Assembly: GCA_030680695.1 (NCBI GenBank)
Contig: JAUXUT010000149.1
Location: 602,324 to 649,430, forward strand
Origin: a bacterium
GTDB lineage: Bacteria > Patescibacteriota > Minisyncoccia > Phycocordibacterales > UBA6065
DNA length: 47,107 nt
Direction: 5' to 3'
The notes below the pieces were generated by a model, which was not told where the DNA came from, did not search any database, and was given only the letters and a program-made list of their open reading frames with translations. Every line of letters begins with the position of its first letter. The stretch's first letter is position 1. Both the position numbers and the translations under genes were made by a program. Of the stretch, positions 3,499-43,430 are shown one piece after another.

Positions 3499-5295
3499 AT
3501 GAATCGATTCACACTCTCAATCTACATAGCCATCGCATCGCTTGTCTTGCCGTTGGCCGTTTCGGCAAGCAATGACACAGGTAATCCAACAGGCGAAGTC
3601 GACTTGTCCTCGACTTGTCAGCTTGTTACGGGATGGAGCTATGATGCCGATTTCAATCCGGTTAATAAGCCGGGGTGTACGAATATGACCGCCACTAATT
3701 ATGACAAGCAAGCGACGGCGGACAATGGATCTTGCACGTTTACACAAGAACCTTGTGTGTCGCGGTATCGATGGGTAAACATTACGGCGGGCACGGTAAA
3801 TCAGGCACAAGGATGTGCTGCAGTTGGTGCCGTACCAATGTTGCAGAACATACCTGAGAGGGGTTTTTGTGCGAGCGGTGAAAGCAGGCCTAAATCTGGA
3901 TTTGATGTTATAAAGATAAATTACAGTCGAGGTATATGGGGAGGTGGTGGCGGTGGTGGCGGTACAGATATGCCGTATCAGAACGGAGGATACCGATGCT
4001 ATGTACCTGGACAGAAGTGGGACCGAGACAATACGGATGTGACCGTGGCTTACTATTGCGATTTCGGTGAATCGTTCCCATCAAGCTGCCCAGCTGATAA
4101 TCCTCCACCAAGGACTTTCACTGGAACGGGCGGAGGTGATCATGTATATAATGATGCAAGGGTGGATTTAAACTTCGAACCAAGATCTTTTTTCGACTCG
4201 ATTGCACGTCTCATCAGGCCTTTCCATGTTCTCGCAGCTAGTTCAGACAGCAATTCAGTAGAGATATATGACGGGCCAAGGGATACCGACGGAACACTCA
4301 TTGCAACTGTTCCCGCTAATATTTATCGCGAGGATGTGAATATGACGATGAATATAACCGGGAATCATGGGTTTTCATGGTCGGTTCCAGGTGCTTATTC
4401 CAACGGCATGCCTAAAAAGTTTTATTTCTACGGCACTGATTTGGATATGGCTGGTAAAACAAGTGAGCTCAAAAACAGCCCTATGACATTCATTTGTGCT
4501 GGTTCAGACACCTCATCACCAGATACGCCGATCCTCATCTGTCCTGCCAGCGCCGCACCCGGTGAATCAGTAAACATAAACTTCAGCTCCACTGATTCTG
4601 ATGGTGACGATGTTCGTTATCTCATTGATTGGGACGGTAACTCATCTGTGGATCAATATGTACCGTCAACCGGTTATGTTTCAGGAAGCGAGGAACAGTC
4701 TGCTTCCAGGACATGGTCGTCAACCGGCAACAAGGTTGTTCGTGTGAGCGCACAAGATACCCAAGGCAATACTTCTTCGACAGCGTCATGCACGATTTCC
4801 GTTTCGTCCGGAGAGCCCGGCGGATGTGAAGGTGATTGTGGATCTGGCACCAGCGGTCCAACAGGAGGAGATACACAAGTATCAGGGTTCACTATCAATG
4901 GAACGTCAAAAATAGCCGTGCAGTTTCTCGCCAACTTGTCTGCCAAGACACAGGAAGCGAATCTGTCGGTTAATCCAGTTGGCTATACAGCACCAGTAAC
5001 CCTTTCAGTCGGTTCGATAATAAGCGCAAGCGGCACAAGTATTCCAGGAGATGTTGAGGTGACTTATTATTTCGGCGGATCACCTTCTGAGTCTATGGTA
5101 ATGACCTATGACGCCGGTTCGGGACATTATCGAGACCAGAATAATCAGATTGGCACCAAGTTCGCAATAGAATTTTCTAAGAAAATCACACAGAAGTACC
5201 GTGTAACTATCATCGGTACATCTGGACAGAATCAGTCACAATTCACTATCGAGGTTGAGCCGAGCGGCGTCACTCCGGATTTCAGGGAAATTTAG
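3499..5295 (+). CDS. secreted multidomain surface protein (Cys-rich segment, PKD/Ig-like domain)
   Basis: Signal peptide; GCTNMTATNYDKQATADNGSC motif; STDSDGDDVRYLIDWDG PKD-like motif; ends PDFREI. Confidence 0.85.
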   Translation: MNRFTLSIYIAIASLVLPLAVSASNDTGNPTGEVDLSSTCQLVTGWSYDADFNPVNKPGCTNMTATNYDKQATADNGSCTFTQEPCVSRYRWVNITAGTVNQAQGCAAVGAVPMLQNIPERGFCASGESRPKSGFDVIKINYSRGIWGGGGGGGGTDMPYQNGGYRCYVPGQKWDRDNTDVTVAYYCDFGESFPSSCPADNPPPRTFTGTGGGDHVYNDARVDLNFEPRSFFDSIARLIRPFHVLAASSDSNSVEIYDGPRDTDGTLIATVPANIYREDVNMTMNITGNHGFSWSVPGAYSNGMPKKFYFYGTDLDMAGKTSELKNSPMTFICAGSDTSSPDTPILICPASAAPGESVNINFSSTDSDGDDVRYLIDWDGNSSVDQYVPSTGYVSGSEEQSASRTWSSTGNKVVRVSAQDTQGNTSSTASCTISVSSGEPGGCEGDCGSGTSGPTGGDTQVSGFTINGTSKIAVQFLANLSAKTQEANLSVNPVGYTAPVTLSVGSIISASGTSIPGDVEVTYYFGGSPSESMVMTYDAGSGHYRDQNNQIGTKFAIEFSKKITQKYRVTIIGTSGQNQSQFTIEVEPSGVTPDFREI

Positions 5296-36014: not shown

Positions 36015-36089
36015 GGTGCCTATAGTTTAGTGGTAAAACTTCGGTTTGTGGAACCGATATCCAGAGTTCGATTCTCTGTAGGCACCCCA
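36015..36089 (+). tRNA. tRNA-His(GTG), probable integration site
   Basis: G-1 plus acceptor GTGCCTA/TAGGCAC, C discriminator and CCA; anticodon arm TCGGT-TTGTGGA-ACCGA. Confidence 0.95.
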
Positions 36090-37664
36090 TTCGAGAATCA
36101 GTTGTTGAAAAGCGATGTTTCGCGCCTCAACAGAACTGTATTCTCTCAGTCCTAACCTCTCAAATTCAGCCCTAAATTCAGGGTATGCTTCTTTGATTGG
36201 CTGGAGCCATTCGTTGGCTGTGATAAAGACTTTCCCATGTTTTATGTAGAAGTTCTGACCGAGTGCCGAGAATATCTCACGTTTTCTTTGAAGATTACCC
36301 ATAACGAATTCCTTTCTAGCAAAGCATGCAAAGCTAAATACCTGCTCTGTAAGGTCCAGCCACTTTGAAGCACGTCCCTCGGTTTCCCGGAGTTTCGCTT
36401 GTAATCGGGCGATTTTATCTTTAAGTATGTCGCGCTCTTTAACAAAGCCCTCATCATCGATAAGATCGCGGTAGCGCATCTTTGTCAGGTTATCGAGCTC
36501 GGTCTGTGACTCGACGACAGTCTTGTGCTGCATTTCGTAAATCTTGGTACGCTCCTCAATTTCTTTATCATTGTTGCGATTCAAAGCCTCAATAGCCCAA
36601 GTCTGAAACTCGGGGAGGATGGTGTACTCCTCAAGCAAAAGCTCGATCTGCTGTTCGAGGTCAATGAGGTTGATTGGGTTTCGCTTAGGACATGGCACAC
36701 CTTTCTTGTGGCCTGAACAATGGTAGTAAGTGTATGTTTTGAGATCGCCAGTTTTCTTTATGGTTTTGGTCTTTTCCGTTCCGGTGTACATCGCACCACA
36801 CAGACCGCAGCGAATAAGTCCGGTAAATGCGAACTCGTGTGTTTGACCTCTCGGCTTGCCGGTCCTGCCGAAGATAGCTTGGACCCGATCGTACTCCTCG
36901 AGGGTGATCATCGGCTTATGATTTCCTTTGTAGACTTTCTTGCCCCACTCGAACATTCCTGTATAGAAAATATTCTTAAACATTTTATAAATCACGCTCG
37001 AAGCCATCTCAACTCCACCGCTCCGCTTACTCTTCAGGGATCGATAGCCCCATTCCTTGCTTGCGATCTCGGCGATACTCACTGGTGTGTAGTTTCCTGT
37101 AAGCATAAGGTCCCACATCTTTCGGATGAGGTCGAAGCGTTCAGGGTCAGGCTGAATTGTGTGCTCAAGTCTTTCGTTGATATAACCAGCCGGAGCCTTT
37201 GAGGGGAACCAACCACGATCAGCTTTACCATGCATGCCACGCTTGGTGTTTTTGCGCAGTTCAATGATGAACTGATTCGCCATTCCACTCTCAACGCTAA
37301 AGAGAAGTACGTTATCATCAGGCAGATACTCGCGTTCCATCGTCTGAATGGATTCGATAATTCCTTTCTGAAGCATCCAGCTTAGCTTTCCACTGTCGAT
37401 TGGGTTTCGTGCGAGGCGATTGATCTGCCAGCAGAGGATTCCTTTTGCTTCGCCTTTCTCAATTCGCTTGAGCATGTCATTGAAGATAGGACGGCCCGGC
37501 TGTTTTGCCGACTTTGCTTCGGTCAGGATTTCTTTGACTGAAATGCCTAGGGAATTAGCTCGCTCTTTGAGGCGGTTTATCTGGTCCTCGATTGACTGCT
37601 CCTGCCGATCCTCGGACTCAGAGGATTTGCGGGCGTACATGAAATATTCAACGTTTGTAGCCAT
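36027..37664 (-). CDS. large serine recombinase (resolvase, recombinase and Zn-ribbon domains)
   Basis: YARKSSE catalytic motif; RP.F, NRLARN and APAGY; CGLCG...YYHC...C Zn ribbon; coiled coil. Confidence 0.95.
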   Translation of the reverse strand: MATNVEYFMYARKSSESEDRQEQSIEDQINRLKERANSLGISVKEILTEAKSAKQPGRPIFNDMLKRIEKGEAKGILCWQINRLARNPIDSGKLSWMLQKGIIESIQTMEREYLPDDNVLLFSVESGMANQFIIELRKNTKRGMHGKADRGWFPSKAPAGYINERLEHTIQPDPERFDLIRKMWDLMLTGNYTPVSIAEIASKEWGYRSLKSKRSGGVEMASSVIYKMFKNIFYTGMFEWGKKVYKGNHKPMITLEEYDRVQAIFGRTGKPRGQTHEFAFTGLIRCGLCGAMYTGTEKTKTIKKTGDLKTYTYYHCSGHKKGVPCPKRNPINLIDLEQQIELLLEEYTILPEFQTWAIEALNRNNDKEIEERTKIYEMQHKTVVESQTELDNLTKMRYRDLIDDEGFVKERDILKDKIARLQAKLRETEGRASKWLDLTEQVFSFACFARKEFVMGNLQRKREIFSALGQNFYIKHGKVFITANEWLQPIKEAYPEFRAEFERLGLREYSSVEARNIAFQQLILEWGAYRESNSGYRFHKPKFYH

Positions 37665-37733
37665 ATAATTGGGTAATGTTAATGCTAAGGGGTGTTGCTG
37701 TGTTACCTTCTTCGTGGGGTAATTGCAAGTCCC

Positions 37734-39089
37734 TTAGAATGGAACATCTTCAGCCTTTATCTCATTTTCATTGTTGGTAACATTTACCCCCGGTTCGTAT
37801 GCACTATTTATTTCTTCCGTTTTCTCAAGCCTTCTGGCTGCAATAGTCGGGTACGTCAGGAGTTGTCGACGATCGTTTGAGTCAGGTTCCTGGAAGATAA
37901 GGCCAGCAGATTCAATGTTGGGCAGGTAGTCATAGCGGAGCCTGAACATGCCAAGGTTGCCGCCATAGACGTGGGCGTATTGCTTGAGCATGTCTTGGCG
38001 GGTAACGCCTATTTTCTTTTCTTCAGGTACAGGATCGCCAAACTCATCGATCTGGTCCCGGTTCCACAGAGGAAGAATAATCTGCGAGTAGAATTCGTAG
38101 AGGTAGGGCGATATTTCAAGCTCCTGAAAGAGAGATATCTTATCCCAAATCTCAAAGCCGGTTTCGATGTCTTCATTAGAAGCATAGAGCGTCGTGCCTT
38201 CTCGCTTACGATGCCAGACATTCAAAAGGGCAACCGATTTGATGATCGAGTAAATACGTTTGATGTCTCGCTGGTTTCTCGGCTGCGGATTTTGTATGTG
38301 AGCGAGGAATCTTTGCTGAACCGCTTTCTCGTCTTCGATGATGATCTCATCAACACCAGCAGCTTTGATCAAAACGATGCGCTCGATCAGGGCTTTACGG
38401 AGAGGATTCTCATTGAGCTCTTTATAATATTTCTTTTTGTCGGACTCCTTGCGAGAGGACTGATGAATACCTGCAAGTATTTTCTCCTGATTTATCTCGG
38501 GACTGAGAAGCAGGAAGCGGGTCATTTCCTGTTGGTCCATTTTGGCATTGGCCGAGCAGAATATGACCGACGGGAAGCCTCTGATTACGGCGGTCTTTGT
38601 GCGCGTACCACCTTTCTCTGTCTTATCCGTGATCTTATGTCTCGTTTCTTTCTCGTCGTGAGACAGGAGTGAGCGAAGCTTTGTGAGAAGCGTTGCATGT
38701 GGCATGTCGAGGAAGATAATGATTTTTCTTGAGAGGTCGATAAAACGCTCGTTCGTTTCTTTTTTATATACGCCGCTCTCGTGGAGAAACGATGTAGGTG
38801 ATGCCCCGGCGAGCTTCATAACATCCTCCTGCGGAAAGAGATTTGAAATCTCGAGAGGAATGAAGCTCTTGCCGGATGATGATGGAGCATTGAAGCTGAT
38901 ATTGAATTGCGCGTTGTCCGTGTATGCCGCAAGCATAGCGAGAAACGTGATGATTTTATTTCCATCATCTTTTTTGATAGTGAGGTCCAATACCTGCCGG
39001 ACCTGATCAAGAGTGATCGGTTCAGGCGGGGTAATGCGCTCCTTAATTTTATCGAGTTCCTCTTTGATTGTAAGTGACTGTAGATTCAT
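37734..39089 (-). CDS. P-loop ATPase, putative replication helicase/primase partner of the element
   Basis: Walker A NAPSSSGKS, Walker B-like IIIFLD, TRFLLL arginine-finger-like motif; acidic EDVPF tail. Confidence 0.75.
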   Translation of the reverse strand: MNLQSLTIKEELDKIKERITPPEPITLDQVRQVLDLTIKKDDGNKIITFLAMLAAYTDNAQFNISFNAPSSSGKSFIPLEISNLFPQEDVMKLAGASPTSFLHESGVYKKETNERFIDLSRKIIIFLDMPHATLLTKLRSLLSHDEKETRHKITDKTEKGGTRTKTAVIRGFPSVIFCSANAKMDQQEMTRFLLLSPEINQEKILAGIHQSSRKESDKKKYYKELNENPLRKALIERIVLIKAAGVDEIIIEDEKAVQQRFLAHIQNPQPRNQRDIKRIYSIIKSVALLNVWHRKREGTTLYASNEDIETGFEIWDKISLFQELEISPYLYEFYSQIILPLWNRDQIDEFGDPVPEEKKIGVTRQDMLKQYAHVYGGNLGMFRLRYDYLPNIESAGLIFQEPDSNDRRQLLTYPTIAARRLEKTEEINSAYEPGVNVTNNENEIKAEDVPF

Positions 39090-39303
39090 GATTTTGTAAT
39101 TTATGGGCTAGTAAGGGAAGTGTTTCGAGCCGTCGCTTATGGATCTGCTCGTGTTCTTCCGGAGTCATCGGCTTGTAGACAAGCTCCATCAGGCGCACAA
39201 GTTGAGTGCCTTTTGCCAGGGCTTCTTCTTTGCTTATGTCCATTCCAAAGCGAGCCTTGTAAAGCTCCTGGAACTTTCTGATGTCAGCGTCCAAAAGCAG
39301 CAT
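39049..39303 (-). CDS. small hypothetical protein of CPR integrative elements
   Basis: I.KFQELYK.RFG.DIS.EEA...G..LV.L...VYKP pattern; overlaps the ATPase start. Confidence 0.75.
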   Translation of the reverse strand: MLLLDADIRKFQELYKARFGMDISKEEALAKGTQLVRLMELVYKPMTPEEHEQIHKRRLETLPLLAHKLQNHESTVTYNQRGTR

Positions 39304-39305
39304 GA

Positions 39306-39578
39306 CTATTCGGAGTAAAGCTTATTCTTCAGAGCCTTGATGCTGTCAAAGAACGACCGAGCTTTGACTTTGAGCTGATCTGAAAAATACTGATTGGCAT
39401 ACGTATCGATGTCCGATTCTTTCCTGAATACGAAAAGGGCCTTGCGAGGATCGTCGCGGTCCAAGCGGATGAGCTTGTACCCGAGGCACAAGAGTGCCGC
39501 CGATACTCCAAGGTCGTAAGTAGTAAACACTGATGCCTCGTCGTCCTGGTGTGACCGAGGCTTTAATTTTCTTGTCAT
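39306..39578 (-). CDS. DUF5659-like small protein
   Basis: F.T.DLG.SAALLC.GY.L..LDR....KALF.F...IKALKNKLY pattern. Confidence 0.75.
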   Translation of the reverse strand: MTRKLKPRSHQDDEASVFTTYDLGVSAALLCLGYKLIRLDRDDPRKALFVFRKESDIDTYANQYFSDQLKVKARSFFDSIKALKNKLYSE

Positions 39579-39679
39579 AGAGTAATTTCGCTAGATTAGT
39601 AATGCGCGTGTTCAATATGAAAACGCACTCACAGTTTCGGTGAGTGCGCTCATTCAATATTCAGAAATGAATCGGATTT

Positions 39680-40321
39680 CTAGCTCTTTTTGTTCGGGTC
39701 GAAGTACCAGCCCTCATCTTTCTGGCTGTAGATTACGTCTTTCTTAAAATGAACTTTCAATGAATTACGAAGCTCGCTTACATATTTCGAGATCGTCATT
39801 TTAGAAACCGTCTTGCGCTTGTCGGCATCAATGATGTTTTCCTTAATGTCGTCCCGGGTGAGTAGGCGTTTTGGATTGCGCATAAACATGCGGCACAAAT
39901 CCTTGATCTGTCCTCGAAGAGGAACGATCACGTCTTTGTAGCGAATGGTCCCATCGGAATATGAAGCAAGACCGCTTACCTCAAACTCGGGCTCAAGGTC
40001 CTTGGTCATGAGCAGGGTATCTTTGATTGCCACTCGCGCAAGTTTCTTACCCTTGGCGGCATTCATGGCGATAAGGCCGAATGGATCAAGAGGCTTTCCG
40101 GTCATTTCAAATTTAACTTTGTATTTCGCAATCGGGACGAGGCATTTTAGGTAGCCTTCCTCTTCAAGCTTAAGGAGAATCGAATACTGCTCATCGGAGA
40201 AAATATTAAAAGTCTTGGCGTAGATATCGCTTATGCTAAAAGCTATCGGTCCCTTGGGGGATATAGCGACTTGGTCTTCAATGCGATTTTTCACAAACCT
40301 GATTTTGGCAGCTGGGGTCAT
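39680..40321 (-). CDS. protein with C-terminal OmpR/PhoB-type winged-helix DNA-binding domain
   Basis: FMRNPKRLLTRDDI...TISKYVSELRNSL...I......GWYF. Confidence 0.75.
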   Translation of the reverse strand: MTPAAKIRFVKNRIEDQVAISPKGPIAFSISDIYAKTFNIFSDEQYSILLKLEEEGYLKCLVPIAKYKVKFEMTGKPLDPFGLIAMNAAKGKKLARVAIKDTLLMTKDLEPEFEVSGLASYSDGTIRYKDVIVPLRGQIKDLCRMFMRNPKRLLTRDDIKENIIDADKRKTVSKMTISKYVSELRNSLKVHFKKDVIYSQKDEGWYFDPNKKS

Positions 40322-40416
40322 GGTAATAGTAATTTCCCTAAATCTACTCTTTTTTAGCTATTTTTCCAAGATGGCGAGGTGGTTCGTGGGATAGAGTTGA
40401 CAGAACCTGAAATACG

Positions 40417-40445
40417 TTGACAAATAGGCTCTATTGTGATATACT
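40417..40445 (+). promoter_or_regulatory. consensus sigma70 promoter of the DGR target gene
   Basis: TTGACA-17 nt-TATACT with extended TG. Confidence 0.8.
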
Positions 40446-40587
40446 TCCTACCAGGAAAACGAACCTTGATATTGCGGGATTTGCTACAGCAGAAAGCGGC
40501 TTACGTGGCTAAGCCATTCTCTGCTGTAGCGAAACCAATGTGGCCAAGCTAGCAGCAAACAACATCAAACAGAAAGGAAATCTGACC

Positions 40588-41301
40588 ATGGATACCATGC
40601 TCAGCAAGGCGCTCCGCGAATTCACAACCGGACCGCTCAATCAGCTCATTGTGAACCTCGGTGGCCAGGACGGCGACCAGTGGGAACAACAGCTCAAGCA
40701 GTTTCTCCGCAAGGAGCCCTGCTGGACCAACGGCCAAGTCACGCAAGTGGCGGAACCGAAACCCACACCCTCGATTCTCGAGCTCGTCTCGACGATCGTG
40801 GTCAATGCAACCACTGGCAAGCTCGTCGCCAAAGAGAAGTTCGTTCGTGACACTGGCCGCAAAGCCAAGGTCAAGATCAGCTACCTCGGCGACAACTTTA
40901 CCTCGTGGTTCCTGAACGGTGACGGCAAGACCGAAGACTCGATCAGCGAACAGACGCTCCGCTACCACAAGTTGCGGCAGTCCTCGGTGGACGGTCCTAT
41001 CATTGCCGAACTCGGCGGTGCGGAGAAGTCGGAAACGACACTCTCCGAGATGTTCTCCCTCATGGAGAAGCAGGGTAAGGGTGAAGACGGGGTTCTCTTG
41101 AACAACGGCTACGCCAATATCTTCTACATCAAGGACGACGCTGGTGTGCTCCGCGCGGTCCGCGTGCGCTGGCGCGGCGGCGGCTGGCTCGTCTGTGCGA
41201 GCTCCGTCGAGGGCCCGCGCAGGTGGGATGATGGCGACCAGGTGTTCTCTCGCAATTCTGTTCTCGAATCCTCGGAACCTTCGGCTCCGGCGCAAGCCTG
41301 A
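40588..41301 (+). CDS. DGR target (variable) protein, C-terminal CLec-like variable region
   Basis: AGAAAGGA SD before ATG 40588; the 3' part is the VR matching the downstream TR. Confidence 0.9.
   Translation: MDTMLSKALREFTTGPLNQLIVNLGGQDGDQWEQQLKQFLRKEPCWTNGQVTQVAEPKPTPSILELVSTIVVNATTGKLVAKEKFVRDTGRKAKVKISYLGDNFTSWFLNGDGKTEDSISEQTLRYHKLRQSSVDGPIIAELGGAEKSETTLSEMFSLMEKQGKGEDGVLLNNGYANIFYIKDDAGVLRAVRVRWRGGGWLVCASSVEGPRRWDDGDQVFSRNSVLESSEPSAPAQA
41137..41255 (+). repeat. DGR variable repeat (VR)
   Basis: 119-bp gapless copy of 41607-41725 (offset 470) with 23 mismatches, all opposite TR adenines. Confidence 0.95.
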
Positions 41302-41324
41302 TCCTTTGTCCCTTGGACACTTTG

Positions 41325-41363
41325 ACCCTCGGTTTGCTTCGGCAGACCGGGGGTTAATTTTTT
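41325..41363 (+). terminator. intrinsic terminator after the target gene
   Basis: accctcggtttgc-TTCG-gcagaccgggggt (with G-U pairs) followed by a T-rich run. Confidence 0.75.
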
Positions 41364-41606
41364 ATATATAAATTGATATACTGTTTCTCGAAATCATGTG
41401 TTACGCGGCGGTTAAGGCTTTCGCGTCATGGTCTTAGGATATTTTTCCCGAGAGTTGCGCTGGGTATGCCTTGCGCGAGAGTGAGAGAAGTCTCTTCAAA
41501 AAAAGAATAAGAATTGGTACATGAGACTGGCGGACTTCGATGTCCCGGATAAAATTCAGCCTGTCATGATTTGGCGGGCGGTGATGCAGATGGTCCCATG
41601 TACGAT

Positions 41607-41725
41607 AACGCTGGTGTGCTCCGAACGGTCAACGTGAACTGGAACGACGACGGCTGGAACGTCAATGCGAACTCCGTCGAGAACCCGAACAGGTGGAATG
41701 ATGGCAACCAGGTGTTCTCTCGAAA
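41607..41725 (+). repeat. DGR template repeat (TR), likely within a non-coding RNA
   Basis: AAC/AAT-rich copy of the VR; 11 AAY codons in the VR frame; all 86 non-A positions identical to the VR. Confidence 0.95.
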
Positions 41726-41743
41726 CTGTTATCTTTCTTCTGC

Positions 41744-41851
41744 TCAACTAGCAGAAGTTTTCTTTTGTAGGCCATTCTTCCAACCACCAAGTTGTCGGCC
41801 GATCTCCTCGAGCCCCGAGATGAGCTCCGAATACCGTTGATAATCAATGCC
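41744..41851 (-). pseudogene. avd: 3' fragment of DGR accessory variability determinant Avd (four-helix bundle)
   Basis: Manual translation GIDYQRYSELISGLEEIGRQLGGWKNGLQKKTSAS*; the EIGR.LGGW motif matches the Avd/23S-IVP four-helix-bundle C-terminus; no ATG/GTG/TTG before an in-frame upstream stop. Confidence 0.75.
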
Positions 41852-41853
41852 GG

Positions 41854-42174
41854 ACCTTTGAGCGGACCCCTGGGGCTTATAAGCAATTAGGAGAAGAGCA
41901 GCTTCGAGATGTGATTCTTTCTGCCCTGAATGGCATCTTTGAAGGAGATGCTACTGGAGAAACTTTTGTTAAGAAAGGTAAAACGGATATACACCTCAAA
42001 ATCGAGAAAGGAGAAATCCTCATTTTTGAATGTAAAAATTGGGGTGGAGAAAAAATATACCTAGACACTATAGATCAACTAATGGGGTATGTTACCTGGA
42101 GACAAAACTACGGTGTCGTAATTATGTTCTCAAAAAATAAAGTTTTTTCAAAGACACTGGCCCAGATACCAGAT
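41854..42174 (+). pseudogene. internal fragment of a PD-(D/E)xK-like nuclease-domain protein
   Basis: TFERTP...EEQLRD...GETF.KKGKTDI...FECK.W.G...IDQL.GY.TWR; no proper 5' end. Confidence 0.6.
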
Positions 42175-42615
42175 ATGGTAGTAACCAAATCACGACTTCA
42201 CGCGGTCCGATATAAGATCGCGTTTGATAAGTATCTTAAAGAAAAAGGATACGGGCATAAAGCACTCGTGGCTTTCTCGGGAACGGTCAAGGATGTTGAT
42301 ACTAAGCTGGAGTATACGGAAGGACAGATGAATAAGGTCCCAGAAAGCCAGACTGCTGAAGAATTTAAAAATGATGACCATAAGTTCTTAATCGTCGCCG
42401 AGAAGTTCCAAACTGGATTTGACCAACCACTCTTGTCGGTGATGTACGTCGATAAGAAACTTGGCGGCGTAAGCGCGGTCCAGACGTTATCTCGCCTCAA
42501 TCGAACTACTTACGGAAAAGATGACACCTTTGTGCTCGATTTCGTAAATCAAACAGACGACATCAAAGAAGCTTTCCAGCCCTACTACACAACTACAGTC
42601 TTATCAGAAGCAACT
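42175..42615 (+). pseudogene. hsdR: internal fragment of type I restriction subunit R (helicase motifs)
   Basis: MVVT.SRLHAVRY, LVAFSG, LIVAEKFQTGFDQPLL.VMYVDKKL, AVQTLSRLNRT and VLDFVN; about 147 aa of a roughly 1000-aa protein. Confidence 0.85.
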
Positions 42616-42679
42616 GAGGAGGCTTTTTCAGTGATGCCCAGGAAAGGGCACTTTCAGAGCTTTTGAGGCTGGGACAGGA

Positions 42680-43222
42680 TTACGCGTGTCTTTGAGTCAT
42701 TGCACCCGAGGTTTCGCGGGCGTCATAGTAGGATTTGATCTTGCGGACGCCACGGTGGACCTGGACGGCTATGCTGTTCTTGGATTGTCCGGTCTTGTCG
42801 GCTATTTCTTCGAGCGACAGCCCATCGAAGTATCGCATCTTCACCACCTTCTGATACTTGTTGGGAAGCTTGTTCACGTCGGCGGCAACTTTGTCGGTAT
42901 CGGCTGAAGACATCGGCAACTCTTCATCCATATCCGGTTCAAAGCCGTTCTCGAGCATTGCATCGAGCGAGGCGGTCTTGTGTTTTCGGTATTCGTCGAT
43001 TATGAGATTGTTGAGCACCCGGTAGAGGAATGCCTTGATTGCTATAATCTGGCCACCTTTTGCGGGGTAGGCCCATGTCTTGGCAAAGGCGTCTTGTACA
43101 AGGTCCTCACTCCGGGCACGGTCGCGGAGTTTGAAGTACGAGTAGCGGGCGAGGGCATCCTTGTATTTCCTGTGGGCTACGGTGAGCATGATTTCTCGAT
43201 AAGTTTTTTCCTGGAGCGTCAT
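42680..43222 (-). CDS. ECF-type RNA polymerase sigma factor
   Basis: EDLVQDAF.K.W and FLYRVLNNLIIDEYRK (region 2); GLSLEEIA...V.VHRG (region 4). Confidence 0.92.
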   Translation of the reverse strand: MTLQEKTYREIMLTVAHRKYKDALARYSYFKLRDRARSEDLVQDAFAKTWAYPAKGGQIIAIKAFLYRVLNNLIIDEYRKHKTASLDAMLENGFEPDMDEELPMSSADTDKVAADVNKLPNKYQKVVKMRYFDGLSLEEIADKTGQSKNSIAVQVHRGVRKIKSYYDARETSGAMTQRHA

Positions 43223-43430
43223 ATGTTTTTAAGGTTTAATTGGTAAATCGTTTGGTCCTCTTTTAATAACGATTTAACAATACACCCTTTTGTTGTCCAC
43301 AGGTATAGACAGGTAGGCAATATCTGTGGAGAAACTGTGTGTATCATTTAATATTTAGTTAATATAGCGTCATTGAGCGATATTTTTTCCTCTTGTTATC
43401 CACCACCTTTTCATGCATAATGTTAAAACT

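Follow-up and report, generated by a model that had tools for sequence, protein, structure and literature searches.

Organization of the locus

The window (the whole stretch of 47,107 nucleotides analysed here, from a bacterium of the Patescibacteriota; assembly GCA_030680695.1) carries, over positions 36016 to 42617, a tRNA-His gene adjoined by a serine recombinase and further element genes, a DGR target gene with its variable repeat (VR) and template repeat (TR), what is left of an avd gene, and two fragments of a type I restriction-modification operon, in the following order:

36016..36089, plus strand: tRNA-His (ARAGORN), probable integration site of the DGR-carrying element
36027..37664, minus strand: large serine recombinase, 545 aa (Pfam Resolvase, Recombinase, Zn_ribbon_recom)
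37734..40321, minus strand: element genes, namely a 451-aa ORF with no Pfam match, an 84-aa ORF, a DUF5659 protein and a winged-helix regulator
40417..40445, plus strand: candidate sigma-70-like promoter of the target gene (11/12 match, with TG; from a consensus scan only)
40588..41301, plus strand: DGR target gene, 237 aa, probably with a C-type lectin/FGE-like fold
41138..41257, plus strand: VR, at the 3' end of the target
41322..41366, plus strand: hairpin and T-tract after the target, a putative terminator and/or IMH-adjacent hairpin
41374..41382, plus strand: extended -10 box (TG-n-TATACT), from which the TR RNA is probably transcribed
41392..41603, plus strand: structured non-coding leader of the TR RNA, about 210 nt, with two hairpins and then a three-way junction (41517-41603) closing right before the TR
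41608..41727, plus strand: TR, AAC-rich
41737..41766, plus strand: 8-bp hairpin and U-tract that overlap the stop codon of avd; probably where the TR RNA ends, or else an Avd-binding stem-loop
41744..41834, minus strand: avd remnant, the last 29 codons (C-terminal helix) plus TGA, with no start codon
41835..42173, plus strand: piece from inside a nuclease-like gene (87% nt and 96% aa identity to its counterpart in genome G029) that belongs to a type I restriction-modification operon; the antisense of this piece supplies the residues GIDYQR
42174..42617, plus strand: internal hsdR fragment (81% nt identity to the G029 hsdR; TIGR00348, E 3e-20)

The RT that a complete DGR possesses has been deleted from this locus, which we therefore regard as a remnant.

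The recombinase frame runs antisense through the tRNA-His gene and has its stop inside it, so that the 3' end overlaps the tRNA. The same serine recombinase lies next to homologues of the DGR target in loci L085, L088, L100 and L110, in L100 adjoining tRNA-Leu/tRNA-His, and both L085 and L110 agree with it at 100% over the N-terminal 34 aa. Homologues of the genes at 37734..40321 occur upstream of the target in L085, L086, L088 and L110; with L100, element-gene homologues were present at that position in 5 of the 47 metagenome loci. The assembly yielded no second att copy, and a DNA search did not find the element in the 21 other genomes of the genus, save for the tRNAs and a target homologue in G020. 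We infer an element integrated at tRNA-His by a serine recombinase, the right part of which collapsed through serial deletions.

The TR/VR pair is genuine, and its VR has undergone adenine-specific rewriting in the past: the two repeats differ at 23 of 120 nt, 22 of which mismatches fall on TR adenines (hypergeometric P 2e-15), and in the 108-nt core all 22 mismatches are at adenines and none at a non-A base. The TR shares 92-98% identity with its counterparts in most intact relatives, and 86% with that of L123. Upstream, between the promoter and the ribosome-binding site, the 5' leader of the target contains a 27-bp inverted repeat (40477-40536).

The target protein gave nothing significant against Pfam or NCBIfam, and PDB sequence searches with the target, the target alignment and a full Avd gave no significant match. 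An AlphaFold model of the target (pLDDT 75) found as its best structural match the DGR target TvpA (2y3c; Z 5.0, rmsd 3.6, 131 residues aligned), which match is weak and tied with unrelated entries, while several FGE/CLec entries followed at the likewise weak Z values of 4.0-4.6; Foldseek returned nothing for the model at E <=0.001. Those matches of the model, coherent but weak, suggest a C-type lectin/FGE-like fold. No relatives of the target were found among viral contigs, so that a phage origin is not supported.

Two peculiarities were observed among the target relatives. In L023 (837-955) and L095 (3551-3670) the target runs directly into avd and the VR is TR-like, that of L095 being 98% identical to the TR of the window, which arrangement suggests either a VR-TR recombination that deleted the leader or an assembly collapse. 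Locus L029, for its part, carries two target paralogues about 2.9 kb apart (1121-1669 and 4001-4687) and has neither TR, avd nor RT.

The avd remnant

An earlier note on this DNA had described, on the minus strand, a 35-residue peptide ending about 20 nt beyond the TR, had read it as the end of an avd gene convergent on the TR whose 5' part had been lost, and had remarked that the frame escaped the ORF list. The peptide is present letter for letter on the minus strand of 41744-41851; its TGA stop occupies 41746-41744, 16 nt beyond the end of the alignable repeat (41727), and the frame, though open for 68 codons, has no ATG, GTG or TTG start that would yield at least 30 aa, which explains its absence from the list. 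Against profiles, the peptide matched Pfam bAvd (PF22296) at E 0.0055, over positions 84-106 of its 107, and NCBIfam Avd (NF033474) at E 0.0022, with scores far under the cut-offs of both families, as is to be expected of a fragment.

A search for relatives recovered full-length avd copies along with the strands of their TR, avd and RT, and placed the segment within DGR loci. In L086, the closest intact relative, which is collinear with the window over 40314-41834 at 86% identity, the stump matches the C-terminal stretch of a full-length Avd at 23/24 aa and 64/72 nt; both the convergent orientation and the loss of the 5' part of avd are confirmed. That L086 protein scores 41 bits on Pfam bAvd (cut-off 40) versus 16.3 on 23S_rRNA_IVP, and the full-length relatives as a group score 41-46 bits on bAvd, above the Pfam cut-off, versus 15-16 on IVP; on NCBIfam NF033474 they reach 59-62 bits, below its cut-off of 80. 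Taken by itself, the fragment scores weakly on the HMMs (E 0.002-0.07), as it would if the peptide were a chance match or came from a four-helix bundle of the 23S rRNA IVP type outside any DGR; but the near-identity to a full Avd sitting between TR and RT in L086 and the preference of the full-length relatives for bAvd refute that explanation through collinear intact relatives, and we give it practically no weight.

The extent of the remnant differs from that first proposed. Instead of breaking off at about 41852, avd DNA ends at 41834: nine avd-bearing relatives match the window at 30-49 of 64 nt over 41770-41833 and at just 12-15 of 47 over 41834-41880, and L086 matches up to 41834 and then reads IPTDK where the window has IDYQR. 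From 41835, in turn, 39 of 46 nt match the nuclease gene of G029, versus 6 of 45 before that position. Because the match of the relatives drops, and that of the nuclease begins, at the same place, we set the avd/nuclease junction at 41834/41835. Only 29 residues of the peptide are thus Avd; the remaining six, GIDYQR, are antisense of the nuclease fragment resembling Avd by chance (6/35 residues), and we rejected them as part of the protein. A full four-helix Avd would comprise about 120 aa with a start codon; 29 codons remain here and the start codon is missing, and the stump is a passive relic.

In 18 of the 19 relatives tried, a poly-G run of 7-12 nt stands at the start of avd, and only 3 of the 18 have an in-frame ATG no more than 60 nt away (examples at the avd/RT junction: L017, 5523-5533; L086, 2804-2815; contig C134 of the present genome, 599542-599550). 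Of the 23 class loci of the B3 architecture (defined below), 9 have such a run too, as do both intact DGRs of this genome, which in its entirety contains only three G/C runs of at least 8. The tract looks like a slipped-strand on/off switch for avd, and it has been deleted in the window.

Probable original layout of the system

Homologues of the target were collected from 26 loci in genome contigs and 47 in metagenome contigs, a total of 73, some of which duplicate one sample or strain. An avd gene was present in 19 of these loci, antisense to the TR in all 19, and an RT in 17 of those 19, on the TR strand in all 17. Another 25 loci extend at least 1.5 kb beyond the target and contain neither avd nor RT, so that loss of the machinery is common in this target family; 21 end too early to judge and 8 miss the 3' end of the target. 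Across the class, an Avd match occurred in 148 of 301 genomes; among the best 30 avd loci the RT is divergent from avd in 23, and among the 18 of those 30 in which the TR was located it lies on the RT strand past the avd stop in 14 and is co-oriented with avd in 4. Both intact DGRs of contig C134 (597951-600550, with its VR at 598543-598672, and 457381-459827, with its VR at 459115-459231) likewise have the order target> TR> <avd RT>. As read from these sequences, that was probably the intact layout of the window's system, with avd and RT back to back.

The earlier note had envisaged an inverted arrangement in which avd, and possibly the RT, oppose the TR. The part concerning avd stands, whereas the inverted RT does not. 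For a layout target> TR> <avd <RT it can be said that, according to Wu et al. (2018; PMC5758913), some DGRs have TR and RT on different strands; yet that layout was found in none of the 17 RT-bearing homologue loci, and a TR opposite both avd and RT in none of the 18 class loci with a located TR among the best 30. L086 and L085, the closest relatives, together with both intact C134 DGRs, contradict it, and we rejected it as exceedingly improbable. Nor is the inversion of avd a departure from the usual layout: it is already published as Architecture B3, TR-(avd)-RT, to which 90% of the CPR collection of Wu et al. (2018; PMC5758913) belongs. In the window, avd follows directly after the TR on the opposite strand, as in B3; the RT, here deleted, lies past avd on the TR strand in the 17 RT-bearing homologues, the closest included.

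The two intact B3 DGRs on C134 have unrelated TRs, and the nearer (597951-600550) ends about 2 kb ahead of the window start. A third RT match in the assembly (contig C64, 1204-1827) lies in a 533-aa open frame, and that contig has no avd match. Among the relatives, L022, L034, L109 and L115 combine a near-identical leader and TR with RTs that are 61-72% identical to that of L017 (the L022 Avd being 37% identical), and in these four loci the enzyme genes seem to have been swapped under the same RNA.

The probable TR RNA unit

The supposition that the TR RNA was transcribed independently of the protein genes appears likely from the arrangement of conserved signals: a hairpin and T-tract upstream, an extended -10 box, and a hairpin with U-tract downstream. 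The upstream hairpin (41322..41366) is kept with compatible changes in 9 aligned loci; across 20 aligned loci each column of the extended -10 box either never varies or is conserved to at least 90%, and a similar box occurs in 9 of the 12 other B3 VR-TR spacers that we folded. The TR RNA is thus probably made as a stand-alone unit from its own promoter.

For the leader fold, in 16 distinct sequences, 97.7% of the cells are paired and 28 of 66 pairs have two-sided changes, which pairing was reached by none of 500 shuffles and compares with 35-50% in slid controls; the controls err on the generous side, since the structure was derived from the alignment on which it was tested and the sequences are related. 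When the three-way junction was turned into a covariance model and this was run on 32 loci outside its training set, with the hit positions compared by hand, it gave 12 matches at E <=0.06, all of them just 5' of the TR position and on the TR strand: 11 of the 23 class B3 loci and the nearer intact DGR of this genome, in whose leader a three-way junction akin to that of the window scored 24.4 bits (E 8e-4). At that same threshold no match arose in the 7 non-B3 loci or in the other intact DGR of the genome, and 4 of the 5 weaker matches were off-site. A whole-genome search with the RNA model recovered the window copy alone.

As to the 3' side, the hairpin past the TR exceeded a mid-avd control in 21 of 24 B3 loci and all 20 shuffles in 19 (L055 was omitted, its avd stop being misassigned); the window's own hairpin at 41737..41766 was not above its shuffles. 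The fraction of identical synonymous sites was 0.53 in the 24 retained avd codons versus 0.59 in mid-gene (14 distinct sequences, leaving out L101, which was mis-anchored, and the near-copies L032 and L085). In the absence of any extra synonymous constraint, the stump probably plays no part at the RNA level other than through the hairpin, and antisense avd as a downstream spacer of the BPP-1 kind, which we had entertained, is unsupported. An uncontrolled RNAduplex comparison of the leader with the 3' region in 6 loci gave no consistent long-range helix.

Junctions in the restriction-modification patchwork

In G029 the nuclease-like gene, the fragment of which in the window has only weak Pfam matches to NERD/Hjc, sits between an hsdS-like gene and hsdR. 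In the window, a second junction near 42173 joins it in frame to the middle of hsdR, with a gap of 1894 nt in the G029 register, which corresponds to some 1.9 kb deleted; at a third, near 42618, the hsdR piece breaks off. The junctions carry little or no repeat sequence. The nuclease and hsdR pieces form a single stop-free frame over 41836-42666, with a GTG start at 41911, which in-frame fusion is probably a deletion accident.

Three junctions within 800 nt might also be produced by mis-assembly of a metagenome bin, in which event everything after 41834 would be a patchwork and the real cell would have a whole DGR; moreover, the junctions are spanned by no run except the probable source run, X1. 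Against this, a 16-kb Logan contig of X1 covers 40300-43300 with no differences—although, as a re-assembly, it is not independent support for the junctions—the assembly holds no further copy of avd or RT, its three avd and three RT matches all being accounted for, and the junctions are nearly devoid of repeats. Runs X2, X5 and X6 partly cover the target and the TR unit; none of the pieces listed crosses the junction, which gap proves nothing. We consider a mis-assembly very unlikely.

Comparison with known systems

In having a target, a TR and a reversed avd, A-specific VR/TR mismatches, a small target with no recognised domain, and intact relatives in which the RT comes next on the TR strand, the locus resembles the Architecture B3 CPR DGRs (Wu et al., 2018; PMC5758913); it differs from an intact B3 system in that the RT and about three quarters of avd have been deleted. 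DGR clade 2 of Roux et al. (10.1101/2020.04.01.020958), to which the RTs may belong, is likewise a near system.

With BPP-1 (mtd-avd-TR-Sp-brt; 10.1101/2023.10.23.563531) the system shares a VR at the 3' end of the target, a TR, Avd, an RT and a stem-loop just past the TR. BPP-1, according to Handa et al. (10.1101/2023.10.23.563531), requires 20 nt of upstream avd and a 140-nt spacer downstream of the TR, which spacer primes cDNA synthesis. In the window, unlike in BPP-1, the TR lies only about 40 nt from the U-tract, what follows is antisense avd showing no extra synonymous constraint, and the conserved structure is upstream of the TR. Stem-loops just past the TR, CPR cases included, are read by those same authors as Avd-binding sites, which reading supplies an alternative role for the hairpin at 41737..41766.

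Thiohalocapsa PB-PSB1 (Dore et al., 2024; PMC10907252) similarly has several DGRs in one genome, some of them short of machinery, and activity in trans is discussed there; in that organism, however, the targets served in trans match the TR of another locus, whereas the window locus keeps its own.

As RT-associated structured RNAs, Rfam RT-9 (RF03080) and RT-7 (RF03028) of Weinberg et al. (2017; PMC5737381) are comparable to the leader, and RT-9 has a capped hairpin similar to that in the leader's 5' part; some RT motifs were speculated by those authors to serve DGRs. The scores stayed far below the gathering thresholds (27.7-29.6 versus 46.1 for RT-9, 27.8 versus 116.8 for RT-7), so that we rejected the leader as a member of either known family; no match above cut-off occurred in 151 class genomes, and 2 of the 5 weak class-wide matches lie beside DGR genes. 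In the accessible parts of the literature, the supplements of which may hold one, we found no description of a leader RNA upstream of the TR or of the poly-G tract.

Proposed history and present state

RT and Avd copy the TR with errors at adenines and rewrite the VR, as is established DGR biology. We propose that a B3 DGR was originally intact on a serine-recombinase element integrated at tRNA-His, and that its TR RNA would have started at its own extended -10 promoter, folded a leader of about 210 nt 5' of the template and stopped at the hairpin, the point of encounter with the convergent avd; the RT and Avd, encoded back to back, would then have carried out the copying of the TR and the rewriting of the VR. 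A deletion would then have joined the 30th codon from the end of avd with the interior of a nuclease gene located further along the element, taking with it about three quarters of avd and the entire RT. The junction itself is directly observed; that both deletion ends lay on one parental element is our deduction, the parental structure having been pieced together from two sources, as no single relative was found in which one element carries both the DGR and this restriction-modification operon. Two further deletions would have shortened the operon and the right end of the element. The stump would have survived because it adjoins and overlaps the hairpin that ends the TR unit.

We regard it as likely that the locus is a recently truncated CPR-type B3 DGR on a tRNA-His serine-recombinase element. 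The recency fits the absence of non-A drift between VR and TR over 108 nt and of stops in the fragments. It is likewise probable that the locus is now inactive and the target fixed, most likely frozen in its last variant.

The missing drift nevertheless fits continued activity in trans equally well. Under such circumstances the locus would be a non-autonomous but working DGR, its TR RNA being reverse-transcribed by the RT and Avd of the nearer intact DGR (C134, 597951-600550), some 44 kb away. Only the proteins could be borrowed, since the broken locus has retained its TR and, within the assembly, its VR is matched by no other; conversely, no remote VRs were found for the three TRs of the assembly, the best other sites agreeing at <=51 of 86-99 non-A positions. 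Several observations are in keeping with such borrowing. Promoter, leader, TR and 3' hairpin are all intact; the RNA, given the lack of extra synonymous constraint in the 3' region of avd, probably needs only the hairpin there; the nearer DGR has an avd in frame and the related three-way junction already described; and DGR parts acting in trans are published (Wu et al., 2018, PMC5758913; Dore et al., 2024, PMC10907252). Furthermore, L022 combines a leader (86%) and TR (94%) of the window type with an RT that is 61% identical to that of its kin and 69% to the RT of this genome, and the RT of the nearer intact DGR is sister to the L022 RT in the tree (90/90). On the other side, that branch is under the threshold for strong support, and the tree forces neither two origins nor a swap; the RNA model finds the window copy alone in the genome; no VR variation was seen in the assembled contigs, which drop rare variants; similar broken loci have been ascribed to earlier or cis activity (Dore et al., 2024; PMC10907252); and a recent deletion is the simpler reason for the absent drift. 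On balance we think it unlikely that the locus still works in trans. Equally, we would advance only with considerable doubt the more general idea that the B3 template RNA is a self-contained gene, its scaffold for RT recruitment and priming being upstream of the TR—the reverse of BPP-1—such that loss of RT and avd leaves a complete, non-autonomous template unit, which in the window would still diversify its target with RT and Avd borrowed from another DGR of the genome.

If the locus is the inactive remnant that we favour, this is ordinary decay, and its significance is small, the layout being published and machinery loss common in the family; interest attaches solely to the template-RNA unit, which is intact. 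The locus can serve as a natural deletion mutant: it has lost everything beyond about 105 nt past the TR, promoter, leader, TR and hairpin remain, and its genome holds two intact DGRs. If the VR of the window still varies, then the RNA of a CPR-type DGR would need no long downstream spacer, and the RT and Avd would serve a foreign template, which conclusion, if true, would bear on the priming of CPR DGRs and on the design of portable mutagenesis templates.
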